DNA of 64,000 bases from a virus. The notes under the pieces are model-generated. The model was not told where the DNA came from, searched no databases, and saw nothing but the letters and a program-made list of their open reading frames with translations. Shown here one piece after another: positions 2,662 to 13,683 of this stretch (the stretch's first letter is position 1; every line of letters starts with the position of its first letter). The position numbers were made by a program, and so were the translations under genes. The DNA lies in the IMG/VR virus record IMGVR_UViG_3300027769_000918, positions 1 to 64,000 of that record, one strand, 5' to 3'.

Positions 2662-3669
2662 CTAGATTTCCAGCCTATGCCAGGATTCTTTTAAGCTTGC
2701 TTGTGACACCCTAATAAACTTAGCGTTTTTAGCAAGGTCAGAAAGGTTTAAAACTCCACCATAAGAACATCCGCTGTTAATTGAGTTTTGCATATTTTTA
2801 ATTGTTTTTATGACCGACCCTTTATTATCTACTTTGCCTGCTTTGCCTTCGGAGTATGGATTTTTAACTCCCATTTTAATCTGAATCTCTTCTGAGGCCA
2901 GGCCTCTAAAAGAACCTGGTTCACCGTCACATTCATCATGTCCAGCAAACATAGAACCCATCATTACGGCACTTGCTCCTGCAGCAAAAGCTTTTACAAT
3001 ATCTCCATTATTTTTAATCCCGCCATCTGCAACAATTCCATTTATCTCATCACCTTTAACTTTTTCATACACGTCCATTATTGATGTTAAAACTGGTACA
3101 CCAAAACCAGTTTCGATTCTTGTCATACAAGCTGCTCCACCACCAATTCCAACTCTTACTGAATCAGCACCTGCATCCATAAGAGATTTGTAGGCTTCGT
3201 AAGAAGACACATTTCCTACCATTATGTGTATCTTATTTGGAACAATAGATCTTAATTGCTTAACTGCATCAACAACAACATTGGTGTGCCCTAAAGCAGT
3301 ATCTAATAATATAACTTTTACATTAAAGCTTAAAATTTTATTAATAAAATCAGTATCTTTAGCTTGATCAATGTTAATTGCAAAGCCGCTTCTTCCATTT
3401 AAAGACTCTGCTTGAGCAAATTTATCTTTAATGTCATTATGCCTTTGAACAAAACCGATTCCGTTTACTGAAGATATAGCGTTAAGCATTTTTGTACTAC
3501 TAATATACTCCATTGGAGCAATCATAATTGGAAATTTAAGATTAAGCCATGCTGCTTTATTATTTGGGTTTCCAATTTTCATAGAAAGATTTGGAAGCGA
3601 TCTACTTTTAACAACACTATTAGTTGCTGGCTCTAGCAGTACATCATCAAAGCATAAAGCTTCTTTCAT
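2662..3669 (-). CDS. IMPDH/GMP reductase family enzyme without CBS domains, more GMPR-like
   Basis: LCFDDVLL, PIMIAPME, LDTALGH, catalytic loop GIGGGAACMTR, ADGGI, MMGSMFAG; the flap has SEGK and lacks the IMPDH Arg-Tyr dyad. Confidence 0.85.
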   Translation of the reverse strand: MKEALCFDDVLLEPATNSVVKSRSLPNLSMKIGNPNNKAAWLNLKFPIMIAPMEYISSTKMLNAISSVNGIGFVQRHNDIKDKFAQAESLNGRSGFAINIDQAKDTDFINKILSFNVKVILLDTALGHTNVVVDAVKQLRSIVPNKIHIMVGNVSSYEAYKSLMDAGADSVRVGIGGGAACMTRIETGFGVPVLTSIMDVYEKVKGDEINGIVADGGIKNNGDIVKAFAAGASAVMMGSMFAGHDECDGEPGSFRGLASEEIQIKMGVKNPYSEGKAGKVDNKGSVIKTIKNMQNSINSGCSYGGVLNLSDLAKNAKFIRVSQASLKESWHRLEI

Positions 3670-4280: not shown

Positions 4281-4332
4281 TTTTTTCTCCTTATTTTTTG
4301 TACTGCTTATGATTAGTATATCATTTTTTTAG

Positions 4333-4403
4333 CTTCTCACCATGGATTCGAACCACGATTCTCGCCTCCAAAGGGCGATGTCCTGCCGTTGGACGAGTGA
4401 GAA
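4333..4403 (-). tRNA. tRNA-Gln(TTG)
   Basis: Acceptor TTCTCAC/GTGAGAA; anticodon arm TCGCC-CTTTGGA-GGCGA; GTTCGAATC T-loop; no encoded CCA. Confidence 0.92.
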
Positions 4404-4407
4404 AGAG

Positions 4408-4478
4408 AGCGGATGATGAGAATCGAACTCACCCCTTCTGCTTGGAAGGCAGAGGCACTACCAATATGCAACATCCGC
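4408..4478 (-). tRNA. tRNA-Gly(TCC)
   Basis: GCGGATG/CATCCGC acceptor; TCTGC-CTTCCAA-GCAGA anticodon arm; U discriminator. Confidence 0.93.
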
Positions 4479-4486
4479 ATGTTACG

Positions 4487-4559
4487 TGTCCCTAGTTGGA
4501 TTCGAACCAACGCTGTATAGATTTTAAGTCTACCGCCTCTACCGCTGGGCTATAAGGAC
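4487..4559 (-). tRNA. tRNA-Leu(TAA) with short variable loop
   Basis: GTCCTTA/TAGGGAC acceptor; GTAGA-CTTAAAA-TCTAT anticodon arm; 5-nt variable region; A discriminator. Confidence 0.88.
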
Positions 4560-4564
4560 TTTCG

Positions 4565-4637
4565 TGCCTTCGGCAGGAGTCGAACCTGCGGCCAGTCGGG
4601 TAGAAACCGAATGCTCTGTCCTCTGAGCTACGAAGGC
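4565..4637 (-). tRNA. tRNA-Arg(TCT)
   Basis: GCCTTCG/CGAAGGC acceptor; TCGG-TTTCTAC-CCGA anticodon arm; GGTTCGACTCC. Confidence 0.92.
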
Positions 4638-4643
4638 ATTTGT

Positions 4644-4952
4644 CTAATCATTTGGAATATCTATATCCATATCCATTTCAACTAAACCCATTTCCTTTGC
4701 TACCTTTTTTCCTTCATCGGACATTTCAATTATTGCTTCAAGATCTTCATTATAAGTTACATTAATTAATCCTTTATTATATAAAGAAACCAGTGATTCG
4801 TTTACATGCTCTTCGTGTGCCTGCCAAAGTTCTGGTGCAAGTATTTTTGCTTTTTCAGTTATATTAAATATTAACTCGCCGTCTTCATCCATGCCAGACA
4901 ATTCTATTGCGCCTATTGAAAGATAATATTCCATTTTATCTTCGCTATTCAT
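4644..4952 (-). CDS. Acidic hypothetical protein inside the tRNA cluster
   Basis: 102-aa ORF with AAAGGTAG RBS-like site, lying between tRNA genes. Confidence 0.7.
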   Translation of the reverse strand: MNSEDKMEYYLSIGAIELSGMDEDGELIFNITEKAKILAPELWQAHEEHVNESLVSLYNKGLINVTYNEDLEAIIEMSDEGKKVAKEMGLVEMDMDIDIPND

Positions 4953-4964
4953 ATCTACCTTTCG

Positions 4965-5038
4965 TGCAACAAGTAGGACTTGAACCTACGATTACCGAAT
5001 TATGAGTTCGGGGCTTTAACCAACTAAGCTATTGTTGC
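4965..5038 (-). tRNA. tRNA with CAT anticodon, probably Ile2 (lysidine type) rather than Met
   Basis: GCAACAA/TTGTTGC acceptor; CCGAA-CTCATAA-TTCGG. Paired 1:72 and no GGG/CCC anticodon stem, so not an initiator. Confidence 0.85.
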
Positions 5039-7984: not shown

Positions 7985-8534
7985 TATTCCGCCCCTTTTT
8001 TAATGTTGCAATAAAGTGATCGTCAATAGGGTTATTGGGATCTCTAGAATACTCTATGGTGTCTATTGTAAAATATTTTTCAACAATTGGCAATACCTGC
8101 GACGCAGAATGGTCAATCCAAGTTCTGCTGTGCAGCACCAACCTGTCCGCTATTTGAGACAAATCGGCTAAATATGAATTCAGCTCTGAGTCCTCTATAT
8201 GTTGAAATACAAGGCTTGCTAAAACTGTGTCAAATTTAAAAGACTTTACATATTCCCAATCAGTAGTGTATGTTATATTACTTAACTTGTTATCTTCTGG
8301 TACTAAACCTATCATGCTTGGCAAGTCAAAAGAAATAACTTTATCGTATGTATCTGATAAGGCTACGGAGTTTCTTCCCACCCCACATCCAAAATCTAAT
8401 GCTGTTGATCCGTGTCCAAATAAGGATCTTACTTCATCGTACACAGGCATATCTCTTAAAGGCCCATGATACCCAGTAAGTATAAGGTCTCCAGCTGTTT
8501 CCTGATTGGCGTTTAGCCACACGTCTTTGCTCAT
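7965..8534 (-). CDS. Class I SAM-dependent methyltransferase
   Basis: Motif I ALDFGCGVGR, FD, FDTVLASLVFQHI. Confidence 0.88.
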   Translation of the reverse strand: MSKDVWLNANQETAGDLILTGYHGPLRDMPVYDEVRSLFGHGSTALDFGCGVGRNSVALSDTYDKVISFDLPSMIGLVPEDNKLSNITYTTDWEYVKSFKFDTVLASLVFQHIEDSELNSYLADLSQIADRLVLHSRTWIDHSASQVLPIVEKYFTIDTIEYSRDPNNPIDDHFIATLKKGRNNAKASI

Positions 8535-8677
8535 CTTTTTTTAATCAATCCAAACTTTTCTAAATATCTCTGTATAGTCATAGCAGAAACCTTACACTCT
8601 TCAGCAATTTCAGTAACCGTTTTCTTTTGAACAGAATATCTTCTGAATAGCCAGTCTTTATTTTGATATAATTTCAT
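8531..8677 (-). CDS. Small HTH DNA-binding protein (48 aa, not in the ORF track)
   Basis: MKLYQNKDWLFRRYSVQKKTVTEIAEECKVSAMTIQRYLEKFGLIKKR; ATGA overlaps at both ends. Confidence 0.8.
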   Translation of the reverse strand: MKLYQNKDWLFRRYSVQKKTVTEIAEECKVSAMTIQRYLEKFGLIKKR

Positions 8678-9240
8678 CGCTCTGTTAGCACCTTGTTAGC
8701 ATAATGTGCAATGCCAAAGCTATCTGCAACGTCAAAATCCACCACATTTAAATTATACTTCCTATTAAAATAGTCAGCAGTTCTCTGCTTTCTCATGTTT
8801 CTTAATTTGTTTTGATACCATGAGTCAGCGTAACCTGGGTTCTCTACCCTAATGGCTTGTTTTTCTTCTTTAGTGGGATTCTTATTTCCTATGTAGGCTT
8901 GCCAAGATGAGGGGGAAATAGTTATAACTTTAGCCCCTGTTGACATAAGCTCTGCAATTACCACCCCGTAAACATAAGATAGTTTAATTACTGCATCTGC
9001 TGATTTAACAAACACTGCACCCTCAACAACAATGTAATCTGACTTTAACTCTTCAAGCATGGAATGCATTTTATTCTTTGCGTCATGGATCTTTTCATAT
9101 ATATCGAGACCATTAAGCTCAATCTTGCCCCACTTTAATGGCTTATCGTCTTCCATCAAGCAGAAAGCAATAGAGTTTGTTGAGGCATCTATGCCCAACA
9201 CCCTGTTTGCTTTTGTTTTTACAAGATCAGCCAATGTCAT
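8674..9240 (-). CDS. ruvC: RuvC-like Holliday junction resolvase
   Basis: VLGIDAST, IVVEG, DVADSFGIA. Confidence 0.85.
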   Translation of the reverse strand: MTLADLVKTKANRVLGIDASTNSIAFCLMEDDKPLKWGKIELNGLDIYEKIHDAKNKMHSMLEELKSDYIVVEGAVFVKSADAVIKLSYVYGVVIAELMSTGAKVITISPSSWQAYIGNKNPTKEEKQAIRVENPGYADSWYQNKLRNMRKQRTADYFNRKYNLNVVDFDVADSFGIAHYANKVLTER

Positions 9241-9505
9241 TTAGCATCCTTTTTACTTTGCCTTTTGTAGTTAAGTCTATATTCTTTTCACATGTAGCAC
9301 AGTATTCTGTTTTATTATATCTACTTAATTGTATCTTACATCTCTTGCATGGACGAACAGCACCGTTTCTGATAGCTTTCTTTTCATAGTATTTTTCCAT
9401 GATTCTGCGATTTGTTGCAACTCTGCAGCATTCATCTGTGCAATACTTTTGATTATGAGTCTTTGGCTCAAAATCTTTAGCACACTCCTTATTAGCACAA
9501 ATCAT
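9227..9505 (-). CDS. Cys-rich zinc-binding hypothetical protein
   Basis: CANKEC...YCTDEC...CKRC...CATC. Confidence 0.75.
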   Translation of the reverse strand: MICANKECAKDFEPKTHNQKYCTDECCRVATNRRIMEKYYEKKAIRNGAVRPCKRCKIQLSRYNKTEYCATCEKNIDLTTKGKVKRMLNDIG

Positions 9506-10293
9506 ACTTTAGGCACCACAAATAAATCTAAGTCTACTGTTCCTTCTGGTCCGCCTTTTGTATAACACTCTTTCTTAATTGGGCAGTATGTACAAGGCAT
9601 CTTTGACTTAGTCGCACCTTCTGGTCTTCTAGGGAGGTCTCCATTTTGAAAATTATCCCAGACAGACTCTAGCCATCTAAATGTGCTCTCAATAATTTCT
9701 TTATTGCGTTCATTCATGCTAATAGGAATTACTAGTATCTCTTGTGTATTTTTGTTTTCGTACAAGAAAAATCCTTCTTTAGCATTCTTTAGTTTCATGT
9801 ACGTAAGAAGCTGTAGCATATGATTTGCAGTAGGCTTCATCTCAGATTGTCTGGTATCCCAAACCTCTTGTTTGGCCGTCTTGATTTCACCAATTACAGT
9901 TTCACCATCATATTCCATAATTAAATCTATAAAGCCTCTAATTGGAGGATACTCGTTAATAATTTCTTCTTCTTCAGATTTAAACTGAGGCATTGTAGAA
10001 ATAAGTTTTTGAAGTCTTTCATGAGCTTGTGTTCCCTGAGCCATGTTTGCAACGGCAACAGCATCGTTATCGTCAATAAACATTGCACCACTAAATGCCA
10101 TGTACCAGTACCTTGGACAATTTCCGTGTCCATACCCAAGTGAGCTTGGGCTAAATGACTTCTTTGTCATCTCACCATCTGCACGTTTTGTATTTCTATA
10201 AGACTCATCAAGTAGTTGAGCAAATAGTTCTGGATCAAAGAACTTACCAGTGTGCTTTTTAAACTTGAGGTTCTTTACAATATCTCTAGCCAT
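9502..10293 (-). CDS. Cas4-like PD-(D/E)XK exonuclease
   Basis: CPRYWY, GFID, GEIKT, QLLTY, CTYCPIKKEC (four Cys for an Fe-S cluster); start re-called at MARDIV (10293). Confidence 0.85.
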   Translation of the reverse strand: MARDIVKNLKFKKHTGKFFDPELFAQLLDESYRNTKRADGEMTKKSFSPSSLGYGHGNCPRYWYMAFSGAMFIDDNDAVAVANMAQGTQAHERLQKLISTMPQFKSEEEEIINEYPPIRGFIDLIMEYDGETVIGEIKTAKQEVWDTRQSEMKPTANHMLQLLTYMKLKNAKEGFFLYENKNTQEILVIPISMNERNKEIIESTFRWLESVWDNFQNGDLPRRPEGATKSKMPCTYCPIKKECYTKGGPEGTVDLDLFVVPKV

Positions 10294-10783
10294 TGTTTGG
10301 CACCCACATTTTTTCTTTTCCTTTATTGTGATATCTAGCCATAACAAACAATAAGTCTGATAGACGATTTAAATACTTAGCAATGTTTGGATTTACATTT
10401 TCTATCTTCCAAACTTCACGCTCTGCCCTTCTTACAACAGTCCTTGCATTGTGCAGTGGTCCTGTTGGTAAAACAAAAGATCTTAAAGGTTCTAGATATT
10501 CATTATAGTCATCAATTACATTTTCTAAATATGTTACTCTGTTTTCAGATATTGTTATTGTTGAAGCACCTGCAAGCTCTGCGCCAAGATCAAATAAGTC
10601 GCTCTGAACTCTTTCAATAATATCATTATACTCATCGGTTGCCATTCCAATAGCAGAGTTGGCCTCATCTACAGCACCTATCGCTTCCATTATAGGGCTA
10701 GTCTTAGACACCCTTTCGTTATTAGCGTTAGAGGTTTGCCCATCATCGCCAGTTTTAGTATAAATTTTACTTAGTATTACCAT
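10286..10783 (-). CDS. pduO: ATP:cob(I)alamin adenosyltransferase, PduO type
   Basis: KIYTKTGDDGQT, GAVDEANSAIG, QSDLFDLGAEL, FVLP, ARTVVRRAER, YLNRLSDLLFVMAR; start re-called at 10783. Confidence 0.93.
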   Translation of the reverse strand: MVILSKIYTKTGDDGQTSNANNERVSKTSPIMEAIGAVDEANSAIGMATDEYNDIIERVQSDLFDLGAELAGASTITISENRVTYLENVIDDYNEYLEPLRSFVLPTGPLHNARTVVRRAEREVWKIENVNPNIAKYLNRLSDLLFVMARYHNKGKEKMWVPNNG

Positions 10784-10926
10784 CAGTGACCCCTTAAAGA
10801 ACGCCAAACATCTACTGCAATTTCATTAACTACAGATAAAGCAAAAACTGTTATAAAAAGCTGAGCAATAATTAATATTGGAAAAGATTTATTCTTAACC
10901 TTTTCTTCTAATAATTCTACGGCCAT
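10783..10926 (-). CDS. Small single-pass membrane protein (47 aa, not in the ORF track)
   Basis: MAVELLEEKVKNKSFPILIIAQLFITVFALSVVNEIAVDVWRSLRGH; AAGGAG RBS; TGATG overlap with pduO. Confidence 0.7.
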   Translation of the reverse strand: MAVELLEEKVKNKSFPILIIAQLFITVFALSVVNEIAVDVWRSLRGH

Positions 10927-11366
10927 CTTACTTCTCCTTTAGTAGAAAATACTAGGCCAAGGTGGTCTCCTGGTTCGACAAAAGTTTCATTAATTCCCTT
11001 TTGTGCCCAGCCCCATTCATTTCTTGGAAATGGCAAGGCCTGATTCTTTTTTACTAACACGGCCCAATATGCATTTTCTGGTGGCATGTCTTGGCATTTT
11101 TCAACACTGTTGTTGGGAAAATTATTTACTCTGCAGACAACAGCATTTCCATACTTTACTGTTCCCTCTATATTATACCCATGTGTCTTTAATAGATCTA
11201 AAGAATTAACTTTACCACTGGCACTGACGCATTTCTTTTCTACTGTAGAATTATTTCCGTAGTCTACGTATAGGTTAATGCACTTTGGTTGATTAGAATT
11301 TAAAACAAACAATCCTATTGCTGAACCAATAAAAATAAACACCAGCATAATTCTTTTTTGAATCAT
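10917..11366 (-). CDS. Membrane-anchored/exported protein with a transcobalamin-like (DUF4430-type) beta-grasp domain
   Basis: N-terminal hydrophobic anchor; SLDLLK...YGNAVVCRVNNFP...YWAVLV...W.WAQKGI....VEPGDHLGLVF. Confidence 0.6.
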   Translation of the reverse strand: MIQKRIMLVFIFIGSAIGLFVLNSNQPKCINLYVDYGNNSTVEKKCVSASGKVNSLDLLKTHGYNIEGTVKYGNAVVCRVNNFPNNSVEKCQDMPPENAYWAVLVKKNQALPFPRNEWGWAQKGINETFVEPGDHLGLVFSTKGEVRWP

Positions 11367-11701
11367 GAGTTATATCTAACGACATACTTAAGTGCATCTA
11401 CAAGTTTGTCTATGGACTCTTTTACTGAATAGTAAACATTCTTTTTATTATTATTTACAGTTCCCGCTTTATCTTTAGCAATAGTTGAATACACAGAAGA
11501 CATTACGGCAAACTTAGTAGACATTGCTTGAAGCTCCATAATTAGCATGGGTGCTTTAGCAGATGGAACATCTGGATTCATTAATAGCTTTACTACAATT
11601 GCTAATGCCTTGTCTAGATGTTCATCTTTCATAAACTCATGTAGGTCATTAAACTCAGTAATATTGCTAATTAGTTCTAGTGTGTTTTTTTCTTCTGCCA
11701 T
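11363..11701 (-). CDS. Phage hypothetical protein (helical)
   Basis: 112-aa ORF in the tightly packed replication operon. Confidence 0.75.
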   Translation of the reverse strand: MAEEKNTLELISNITEFNDLHEFMKDEHLDKALAIVVKLLMNPDVPSAKAPMLIMELQAMSTKFAVMSSVYSTIAKDKAGTVNNNKKNVYYSVKESIDKLVDALKYVVRYNS

Positions 11702-11781
11702 TTATCTACCTTATCTATAAACAATCCGAATGGATATCCGATTGCAAAACCTAACAACAACCCAAACAGGAAGGTTGTCAT
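11677..11781 (-). CDS. Small membrane peptide (34 aa, not in the ORF track)
   Basis: MTTFLFGLLLGFAIGYPFGLFIDKVDKWQKKKTH; TAATG overlap with the ssb stop; GAGG upstream. Confidence 0.6.
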   Translation of the reverse strand: MTTFLFGLLLGFAIGYPFGLFIDKVDKWQKKKTH

Positions 11782-12203
11782 TAGAATGGAACCTCTGCCT
11801 CTGTAATATCCCACTTAGAGGGGGCCGACCAAGAATCTGATTTAAGAGATTGCTTAAATGAACTTGATTCGTTTTTTGACAAAGACCAGGTTGTCACTGC
11901 AATTGTGTCTGCGTTTACATCATAAGATGTCCGACTATTACCTTCTTTGTCTTTCCATGTCTCTTCATAAATCTTTCCTACAATAACCACTTCTTGACCC
12001 TTTTTAAGTGTAGCAATGCTTTGCTCTGCTAAACTTTTCCACGCCTTAACTGTCCACCAAGATGTATCTTTGTCATCCCACTGGTTTGTTGCGTCATTTT
12101 TAACACGATCATTTGAAACAATGCGTAGTCTTACTCCGCCACCGTTTAGCTTAACTGGATCCTGCCCTACTCGACCAACGATTGTAATTGTTGGATTAGC
12201 CAT
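11781..12203 (-). CDS. ssb: Single-stranded DNA-binding protein
   Basis: ITIVGRVGQDP, WWTVKAW..LAE, KGQEVVIVG, C-terminal EVPF. Confidence 0.92.
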   Translation of the reverse strand: MANPTITIVGRVGQDPVKLNGGGVRLRIVSNDRVKNDATNQWDDKDTSWWTVKAWKSLAEQSIATLKKGQEVVIVGKIYEETWKDKEGNSRTSYDVNADTIAVTTWSLSKNESSSFKQSLKSDSWSAPSKWDITEAEVPF

Positions 12204-12504
12204 TTTTATTTTCCTCCCAGAATGCGATCAGATCTTCTAAGATCGACCACTCAATGATTCCAAGTCGAACCTTGGAATCCTCACCGATTATTATTTTAAG
12301 AGCGGGATGCATATCTCGACTTACCTTAAAAGTATCTGTACAGATTTTAGCCCATACATCTTTATTTAAATTAAATGATGCTTTCGCTTCTTTATAGTCC
12401 ACAAGGAACTGATTCCACTTTGCATCACCTTTTTGATAATCACCACGACCACTATTTTTTTGAGCCTTAGCGCCATCTCTTTTTACTTCTGCTCTTTCTG
12501 ACAC
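12196..12504 (-). CDS. Putative restriction-like endonuclease/resolvase
   Basis: NSGRG...KGDA...LVDYKE pattern, PD-(D/E)XK-like. Confidence 0.55.
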   Translation of the reverse strand: MSERAEVKRDGAKAQKNSGRGDYQKGDAKWNQFLVDYKEAKASFNLNKDVWAKICTDTFKVSRDMHPALKIIIGEDSKVRLGIIEWSILEDLIAFWEENKNG

Positions 12505-12692
12505 TACTGAACCTTAAAAACTGTTTCATGCCCTTTGGAACATCTCCAAGACATAACCAACTCTATAGGGTCCCAACTTGCTCCATTAACATCCTCGTCG
12601 CATGTATTACATGCTCTAAGACCTGGAAGCCTTTCTAATTCATACTCTTTTTGCTCAATCTTTTTATTAAAAAACTCATTAAGATTTGGCAT
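12504..12692 (-). CDS. Small zinc-ribbon-like protein
   Basis: CNTC...CSKGH. Confidence 0.7.
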   Translation of the reverse strand: MPNLNEFFNKKIEQKEYELERLPGLRACNTCDEDVNGASWDPIELVMSWRCSKGHETVFKVQ

Positions 12693-13683
12693 TTATCTCT
12701 TCTTCCAAGCTGTTTACAACATCTGGATTTTCCTTTAAATATGCTACAGCCTTTGCACGTCCTTGAAAACGTTCTCCATTTACTGTATACCATGCTCCAC
12801 CTTTTTCTACAATCCCGCACATTTCTGCAACATCAAGAGTTTCACCGACACGGTCTACACCAAGAGTTTCCCCTTGGTAGTAAAAGTCATACTGTCCTGA
12901 TAGATTTGGGGGACCGAGTTTGTTGTAATCAATAATCCAGTTAACTGGCCTTCCAACTCTTTGTTCAATGATCTTGTCGCCAACTTTAATCCCAGCTTTA
13001 ATAGCATTCGCCTCAGCTTCAGACGACCAGAGTTTAATGACAGTGGAAGAAAAGAACTTGACTGCCATGCCACCTGTTGGGATGTGACTAGCATGCATAG
13101 ATCCAAATTGATTTCGTTGTTGTGAGATGAGAACAAGTAGTGTGTTTTTGTTTGCATAATTTAACATTTTGACTGCGTGGGTCATATCCTTTGCTTCAGC
13201 GCCGATTTGCTTTGTATCCTGCAAATCTTTCATTTCATTTCCATCTTTTTCAAAATAAATTGCTGGCAACAATGCAGAAATTGAGTCAACAACTATCATG
13301 TCAACCCCAGCATCCATTAGCTTTGTTGCAACATCAACCATGTCGTTTACTGTTTTTGCTGGAGAATAGATAAGGGAAGATGAATCTACTCCTAAACTTT
13401 CAGCCCAAGACTGGTCGTATGACGCTTCGGCATCAATCCATGCACAAGTCTTTCCTTCTTTTTGCGCCATTGCAATCATTTGCAAACAGAACGAAGACTT
13501 ACCAGCAGATTTGTTGCCCCACACAAGGACTTGTCTGCCGTATCCTAGACCGCCACGGAGAGCAAAGTTTAATCCAATACTTGGTGTAAGTTGTTTTTCA
13601 ACTTGAACGTCCTGTGCTGATTGAACTCGTGCTCTTGTTTTTGGATCTAATTTTGCTAATACATCATCTATTAATATACTCAT
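12679..13683 (-). CDS. recA: RecA-like recombinase
   Basis: GGLGYGR, GNKSAGKS, WIDAE, VVDSISAL, ISQQR, TGGMAVKF, GGAWY...FQGR. Confidence 0.93.
   Translation of the reverse strand: MSILIDDVLAKLDPKTRARVQSAQDVQVEKQLTPSIGLNFALRGGLGYGRQVLVWGNKSAGKSSFCLQMIAMAQKEGKTCAWIDAEASYDQSWAESLGVDSSSLIYSPAKTVNDMVDVATKLMDAGVDMIVVDSISALLPAIYFEKDGNEMKDLQDTKQIGAEAKDMTHAVKMLNYANKNTLLVLISQQRNQFGSMHASHIPTGGMAVKFFSSTVIKLWSSEAEANAIKAGIKVGDKIIEQRVGRPVNWIIDYNKLGPPNLSGQYDFYYQGETLGVDRVGETLDVAEMCGIVEKGGAWYTVNGERFQGRAKAVAYLKENPDVVNSLEEEINAKS

Follow-up and report, generated by a model that had tools for sequence, protein, structure and literature searches.

How does a phage that depends on vitamin B12 for making its DNA obtain the cofactor? 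Many aquatic phages need B12 for DNA synthesis via class II reductases; the vitamin is scarce, and few microbes make it. The question becomes directly testable with a cassette of three genes found in an uncultured freshwater phage, presumably of actinobacteria, known from IMG/VR virus record IMGVR_UViG_3300027769_000918 (91,481 bp, estimated to be 71% complete), the first 64 kb of which constitute the window analyzed here. On the minus strand of the window, calls of open reading frames (ORFs) yielded three genes that overlap one another. They encode p149, a type II (signal-anchored) membrane protein of 149 amino acids (aa) and putative corrinoid binder (positions 10917-11366); p47, a 47-aa single-pass membrane peptide (10783-10926); and a 165-aa PduO-type ATP:cob(I)alamin adenosyltransferase (10286-10783). 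The overlapping genes had been placed at these positions, and inside a replication block, by a first-pass annotation made from the sequence letters. Both statements held, since the ORFs were found there and the cassette is surrounded by genes for a UvsX-like recombinase, two Holliday-junction resolvases, SSB, and a RuvC-like resolvase. We consider it likely that the cassette supplies B12 for the phage's own adenosylcobalamin-dependent reductase, an enzyme of the RTPR type.

Fold and relatives of p149

No model in Pfam, PHROG, or NCBIfam matches p149, and neither the protein nor the region as a whole has a match among 50,697 deposited phage records. Relatives of nearly the same length were found in metagenomes (ca. 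195) and in IMG/VR contigs (193). In an alignment of 27 relatives, a basic start is followed by an N-terminal hydrophobic helix, the cysteines C29, C46, C78, and C91 are invariant, and the blocks EGTxKYGxAVVCRVN, MPPxxAYWA, EWGWAQ, and PGDxLGLVF are conserved. The pattern from which a DUF4430/transcobalamin-like domain had been proposed at first pass (LDLL..G....YG..V..VN.FP...YW...W..G.....PGD.LGLVF) is present in p149. So is the N-terminal membrane anchor, which appears as a helix at residues 2 to 23 of the AlphaFold (AF2) model; a cleavable signal-peptide motif is not evident in the sequence.

The model (pLDDT 81, pTM 0.72) continues from this helix into a beta-rich domain. When it was searched with Foldseek, the top 15 matches were transcobalamin, its isolated beta domain, intrinsic factor, haptocorrin, and the DUF4430 protein 3u7z. 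Alignment of the model to these 15 entries by VIA-align gave Z scores of 9.6 to 11.0 over 93 to 101 aligned residues of the ca. 100-residue domain, and the root mean square deviation was 2.5 to 3.6 for most entries. The next fold matches, which are generic beta-grasp proteins (TtuB, MoaD/ThiS, and Urm1), reached Z scores of 5.9 at most. These data indicated that the putatively extracytoplasmic domain of p149, as modeled, has the transcobalamin-beta/DUF4430-like SLBB beta-grasp fold.

Of the resemblance proposed at first pass, the fold was thus borne out, whereas membership of Pfam DUF4430 by sequence was not: PF14478 (DUF4430) does not match p149 even at an E value of 1. The same model matches one of 65 distant p149 relatives (E = 0.0033) and misses the Aurantimicrobium homologue, yet it has matches in 74 of 401 Actinomycetota genomes. 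Profiles were also compared by hhalign with a DUF4430 profile built from 20 actinobacterial loci. The probability was 41% for the phage p149 family (E = 2.8e-4), 79.5% for phage and cellular relatives together (E = 1.5e-5), and 92.3% for the cellular relatives (E = 5.4e-7). At the sequence level, the kinship of p149 to Pfam DUF4430 therefore appears remote. Against PDB sequences the phage-family profile gave chance-level matches only, and its scan of 185,579 species genomes confirmed no relative.

An exhaustive phmmer search returned 178 relatives of p149. The distant ones are high-GC and carry signal peptides or lipoboxes, some together with Pro/Thr-rich linkers and C-terminal anchors, and all but one of the relatives found in GTDB genomes are labeled Actinomycetota. 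A GTDB search with an actinobacterial profile confirmed 206 loci, the best 80 of which were examined; where a taxon is named among these 80, it almost always belongs to the Microbacteriaceae (Aurantimicrobium, Aquiluna, Pontimonas, Cryobacterium, and Agromyces among others). In profile searches of 401 genomes sampled from the phylum and 401 from the class, all relatives came from genomes of at least 1.8 Mb and were lipoproteins or surface proteins, and the lower-identity metagenome loci that were inspected looked like phage DNA with tRNA arrays. The Microbacteriaceae proteins are lipoproteins with weak matches to NCBIfam NF040672 (SCO2322 family). The phage p149 family aligned with them in hhalign at a probability of 100% (E = 7e-42), phmmer E values reached 1e-13, and the same four cysteines are shared.

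The surroundings of these cellular genes are those of a transport operon of the energy-coupling factor (ECF) type. Directly downstream, in 79 of the 80 loci, lies a gene for a fused CbiQ/EcfT with two ATP-binding cassette (ABC) ATPase domains (EcfT-A-A'), in agreement with the link to ECF-type uptake loci suggested at first pass. A 255-aa polytopic protein comes next in 71 loci, and a gene for B12-dependent MetH is convergent to the operon in 63. The model of the 255-aa protein has a pLDDT of 87, and about 20 of its 22 best Foldseek rows are FolT, RibU, ThiT, PanT, BioY, and HmpT (probability, 0.95 to 1.0, with weak E values); as modeled, the protein folds like an ECF S-component. The resulting operon of lipoprotein, EcfT-A-A', and S-component-like protein, seen at L090:8001-15272 and at 79 other Microbacteriaceae loci, is conserved and apparently undescribed. 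Neither PduO-type nor CobA-type adenosyltransferases were found in four such Microbacteriaceae genomes, which is consistent with a use of B12 centered on MetH in these bacteria.

The membrane peptide and the adenosyltransferase

p47 has no match in Pfam, PHROG, or NCBIfam. An ORF of 41 to 54 aa ending in W[RK][SA]x[RTK]GH was found at or just after the p149 stop codon in all 77 IMG/VR loci with enough downstream sequence. This set contains 37 distinct sequences, in whose alignment only M1, W41, R42, G46, and H47 are invariant. The peptides are built alike, with a lysine-rich N-terminus, one hydrophobic helix, and a tail of the form ...D(I/V)WRSxxGH. Such an arrangement is far beyond chance. 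Thus, the unannotated single-helix peptide pointed out at first pass is the product of a real gene, the constant and obligate partner of p149. A search for fused or longer p47 forms found none, and the tail motif is absent from the 80 cellular loci, beside the actinobacterial p149 homologues.

Two loci that failed the strict tail motif still carry p47 variants. At L245:4935-6430, a 54-aa variant ending in HVWRMMTGH is followed by two tRNA genes and then by PduO. In L245, and also in L219, L200, and L198 (phage contigs with somewhat higher GC contents, 0.42 to 0.50), tRNA genes are situated between the p47 homologue and PduO and flank the cassette as well. At L206:1037-1904, a p149 homologue is followed by a 53-aa Cys-rich ORF and then by an 81-aa two-helix protein, with no PduO or RTPR nearby. 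Two hydrophobic helices flank the sequence AWRFYNGH in this 81-aa variant, whose C-terminus is basic; under the positive-inside rule, the motif would then be exposed on the outer side of the membrane. We infer that p47 likewise has its N-terminus inside and its C-terminal WRxxxGH tail outward.

The third gene can be assigned by sequence to the PduO-type adenosyltransferase family without ambiguity. PF01923 matches its product over profile positions 1 to 170 of 171 (E = 1.9e-50; 171.7 bits versus a cut-off of 24), and TIGR00636 gives 156.7 bits versus a cut-off of 108.45. Among solved structures, the PduO-type corrinoid adenosyltransferase 2g2d/6wgs is most closely related to it (E = 1e-30). 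The segments KIYTKTGDDGQT, RSFVLPTG, and ARTVVRRAERE align to the matching segments of that structure, as do the ATP motif KIYTKTGDDG and the SFVLP and RTVVRRAER segments; the motifs are therefore intact, as had been stated at first pass. Compared with 2g2d/6wgs, the phage enzyme is a compact form with shortened loops. The roles of the ATP motif, of the conserved Phe, and of the Arg-rich active-site segments are known from LrPduO and MMAB. As for the start of the gene, the most likely codon is the ATG at 10783-10781, which gives 165 aa and shares one base with the TGA stop of p47 (TGATG); the longest PduO ORF would begin at a TTG at 10807 and encode 173 aa.

Linkage to the reductase and setting in the phage genome

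A class II (NrdJ) ribonucleotide reductase (RNR) had been named at first pass as a possible consumer of the cofactor. The class II assignment stood; in this phage the enzyme is best matched by the monomeric RTPR type, and its gene lies outside the window. The record contains a single RNR-like gene, at ca. 80011-81945 on the minus strand (L082:214-2148), which encodes a 644-aa RTPR-type class II reductase. TIGR02505 is by far its best-scoring family (E = 1.6e-89; 300.9 bits, which is below the equivalog cut-off of 340 that 8 of 25 related records exceed), and the protein contains the insertion domain typical of class II enzymes, PF21995. Among the 25 longer virus records that bear p149, RTPR was found in 19, including all five that are at least 90% complete, and the six records without it are fragments (20 to 67% complete).

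The reductase gene is often located directly upstream of p149. Of the 58 IMG/VR loci with sufficient flanking sequence, 23 show a gap of 15 to 147 nucleotides (nt) between the end of RTPR and p149; PduO is present in 15 of these 23 and absent from 8. In metagenomes, RTPR lies within 400 nt of p149 in 43 of 80 loci, and the order RTPR-p149-p47-PduO is seen in 38 of the 80. PduO follows p149-p47 in most loci. The linkage of the 149-aa protein with pduO and the small peptide, anticipated at first pass, thus recurs across divergent phages. The lineage of the window has the three-gene cassette without an adjacent reductase, and its RTPR gene lies ca. 70 kb away in the same genome.

The backbone that holds the cassette is related to that of ca. 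130-kb Streptomyces phages of the Stanwilliamsviridae, to which the RTPR and the recombinase of the record are 66% and 57% identical, respectively. The corresponding genes of phage Coruscant are arranged as recombinase, small ORF, resolvase, gp199, Cas4-like gp198, small ORF, and RuvC. Positions 8531-13683 of the window are collinear with Coruscant 62028-66213, including a helix-turn-helix gene; the exceptions are the cassette, SSB, and a 45-aa ORF. Coruscant gp199 is 45% identical to a 112-aa protein encoded just upstream of p149, and gp198 is 41% identical to a Cas4-like nuclease encoded just downstream of PduO. The two genes adjoin in Coruscant, and their homologues in the window are separated by exactly p149-p47-PduO. 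By this comparison, the cassette is an insertion into a conserved actinophage backbone, with the 112-aa and Cas4-like genes marking its boundaries. None of the Streptomyces phages in the set of 50,697 records was found to have p149 or PduO. In Streptomyces phage Yaboi, an endolysin gene follows the RNR gene.

Soil streptomycetes make B12, and small-genome freshwater actinobacteria scavenge it; this difference between hosts would explain why the cassette is carried by the freshwater relatives only. An actinobacterial host with a single membrane is suggested by the phage backbone together with the taxonomic range of the p149 relatives. The cassette itself is mosaic. When loci L053-L063 were compared with the window, PduO, the 112-aa gene, and Cas4 were 72 to 99% identical, with 93 to 99% for PduO and the backbone genes, versus 50 to 52% for p149 and 40 to 49% for p47. 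The p149-p47 pair seems to have been swapped as a block between phages that are otherwise nearly identical, and its joint divergence within this backbone supports the idea that the two products work as a unit.

The two boundary genes are on the minus strand as well. The 112-aa protein (11363-11701) matches phrog_9818 and is of unassigned function, and the Cas4-like PD-(D/E)XK exonuclease (9502-10293) was identified by PF12705 and phrog_1706. The five genes share one direction, and the stop of each overlaps the start of the next, in the order 112-aa gene, p149, p47, PduO, and Cas4-like gene. The junction between the 112-aa gene and p149 is an ATGA overlap, the ORFs of p149 and p47 share 10 nt, and the ATG of the Cas4-like gene at 10293 lies 8 nt within PduO. 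Scans of the cassette region for sigma-70 promoters and terminators gave sites no commoner than in shuffled sequence, and no WhiB gene was found in the record.

Three further features of the window, all on the minus strand, were recorded. The small hydrophobic 45-aa ORF mentioned above, at 11677-11814 just upstream of the 112-aa gene, is 42 to 71% identical in related phages. The gene at 2662-3669 encodes a protein of the GMP reductase/IMPDH family (PF00478, E = 7e-65), and a weak match to PF02310 (B12-binding) was rejected because the gene belongs to that family. Five tRNA genes (Gln-TTG, Gly-TCC, Leu-TAA, Arg-TCT, and Met-CAT) are clustered at 4332-5038.

Proposed mechanism, rival explanations, and known systems

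If the cassette feeds the phage reductase, its products could act as follows. During infection, p149 would insert into the host cytoplasmic membrane through its N-terminal signal anchor and expose its disulfide-stabilized transcobalamin-beta-like domain on the outside, where it would bind a corrinoid. p47 would lie beside it, and its WRxxxGH tail at the outer face would complete the site or dock the pair onto a host importer. The corrinoid would then be taken up through the host system. Host machinery must be used for this step because the phage encodes no transporter, and neither an S-component nor an ABC ATPase was found in any of 13 phage records. Inside the cell, the phage PduO would adenosylate reduced cobalamin with ATP, and the phage RTPR would use the adenosylcobalamin for the synthesis of deoxynucleoside triphosphates, to the presumed benefit of replication.

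Several points weigh against this proposal. No sequence model of a B12-binding family matches p149, and the match of the phage profile to DUF4430, at 41%, is weak. Some relatives hold RTPR-p149-p47 without PduO. The window, 9 Microbacteriaceae loci, and 12 metagenome loci were scanned for cobalamin and adenosylcobalamin riboswitches, and no match at the Rfam gathering score was obtained, so that the phage and cellular loci examined give no sign of regulation by B12. The phage has no membrane transporter of its own, and uptake would need an importer of its host. In addition, heme has been put forward as the cargo of a transcobalamin-like ECF system in Lactobacillus sakei (10.1101/864751), and by analogy the ligand of p149 could differ from B12.

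One rival explanation starts from this last point and holds that what p149 and p47 capture is not cobalamin but some other tetrapyrrole or a precursor of corrinoids (heme, cobinamide, or another cobamide). The fold says little on the ligand, p149 falls outside Pfam DUF4430, ECF-CbrT carries cobinamide too (PMC5997447), and the transcobalamin-like pair of L. sakei has been modeled with heme (10.1101/864751). The conserved partners, however, are an adenosylcobalamin-dependent RTPR and an adenosyltransferase, the cellular relatives stand beside MetH, and no heme-dependent phage gene was noticed; a ligand other than cobalamin therefore seems improbable to us. The lack of a phage transporter would also suit a binder that sequesters B12 on the cell surface or obstructs the host importer, which would starve competitors or co-infecting phages or divert B12 from the host MetH; an arms race could lie behind the joint swapping of the binder pair in backbones that are nearly identical. 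Yet an import block would starve the phage RTPR as well, a role in supply is favored by the tight operon with RTPR and PduO, and the cellular homologues belong to import operons. We give sequestration little credence.

Other rivals concern the side of the membrane on which p149 works and whether B12 is involved at all. Facing the cytoplasm, p149 could be a membrane-tethered B12 chaperone between PduO and RTPR, for which the animal cofactor chaperones MMACHC and MMADHC would offer a parallel. Its linkage to two cytoplasmic B12 enzymes and the lack of an evident cleavable signal-peptide motif fit this placement, but the basic N-terminus before the helix predicts an N-in, domain-out orientation, and the four invariant cysteines suit an exported domain. 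Moreover, the cellular homologues have lipoboxes and are hence extracytoplasmic, and the two-helix p47 variant puts WR..GH in an outer loop. We regard a cytoplasmic chaperone as very improbable. The least probable explanation is that the role of p149 and p47 has nothing to do with B12, for example that of a surface or exclusion protein, and that they are linked to PduO by position only. Some loci lack PduO or an adjacent RTPR; nevertheless, p149 and p47 are repeatedly associated with RTPR and/or PduO, in families only 45 to 60% identical and in different genome neighborhoods, and the fold match of p149 is specific.

Supply of B12 to the phage RTPR is thus the reading we prefer. A more daring and rather doubtful extension of it is that p149 and p47 form a hitherto unknown two-piece, virus-encoded device for corrinoid capture. 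In such a device, the site would be completed by the invariant, outward-facing tail of p47, whose terminal His could serve as an axial cobalt ligand, in place of the missing alpha domain of transcobalamin; alternatively or in addition, p47 would replace an S-component by docking the loaded binder on a host ECF module. The phage would then rewire the vitamin import of its host with only ca. 200 codons.

Seen on more than 190 IMG/VR contigs and in 239 stretches of metagenome sequence, the cassette is a concrete and widespread candidate for how B12-dependent phages get their cofactor, and it joins a predicted surface binder and an enzyme that activates the cofactor with a mini-peptide partner that is new. 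If the proposal is right, this would be a virus-encoded vitamin-capture system that connects the B12 economy of lakes with the replication of phages. Biochemistry would gain a very small corrinoid-binding module, and the finding would point to an uncharacterized ECF-type B12 importer in Microbacteriaceae. In a study of marine virioplankton with RTPR, Wu et al. (2023) speculated that such viruses "regulate or enhance B12 uptake" (PMC10547690). Our literature searches found no description of a phage module that combines PduO with a binder, in keeping with the first-pass view that no characterized phage module joins binding and activation.

By fold, p149 is closest to the transcobalamin-like SLBB clade. 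Extracellular members of this clade encoded in CbiQ/CbiO operons were predicted to be B12 scavengers by Burroughs et al. in 2007 (PMC1796856), and the p149-like Microbacteriaceae lipoproteins in ECF loci fit that prediction. p149 shares the fold of the DUF4430 protein 3u7z and of the transcobalamin beta domain (5no0/5np4) with Z scores of 10.4 to 11.0; it is likewise predicted to be extracytoplasmic and tethered to the membrane, and its relatives are encoded with CbiQ/CbiO-type (ECF) genes. It differs from the clade in its four conserved cysteines, in an extra MPPxxAYWA segment, and in having no PF14478 match. In contrast to transcobalamin, it has no alpha-domain partner, and the small peptide p47 is encoded instead. 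The Microbacteriaceae lipoproteins have a lipobox, come with a transporter of their own, and have no p47-like gene beside them, whereas phage p149 has a signal anchor. The Streptomyces phages of the Stanwilliamsviridae share the RTPR (66% identity) and the synteny of the replication module, but these cultured relatives are without p149 and PduO.

The closest parallel in gene order is the nrdJ-cbrS-cbrT-pduO cluster of Lactobacillales, which was reportedly described by Rodionov and coworkers in 2009. In B12-auxotrophic Lactobacillus delbrueckii, which has this cluster, ECF-CbrT was characterized by Santos et al. in 2018 (PMC5997447). The phage cassette differs in being viral and in that the position of CbrT, an S-component of ca. 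190 aa and six helices, is held by a one-helix peptide of 41 to 54 aa. Reductase and adenosyltransferase are clustered at 15 IMG/VR and 38 metagenome loci, and the RTPR gene of the window's phage lies in the same genome at a nonadjacent site. The RTPR-p149-p47-PduO arrangement of many related phages nevertheless follows the same order and logic as the bacterial cluster: a reductase, an accessory protein, a membrane component, and an adenosyltransferase.

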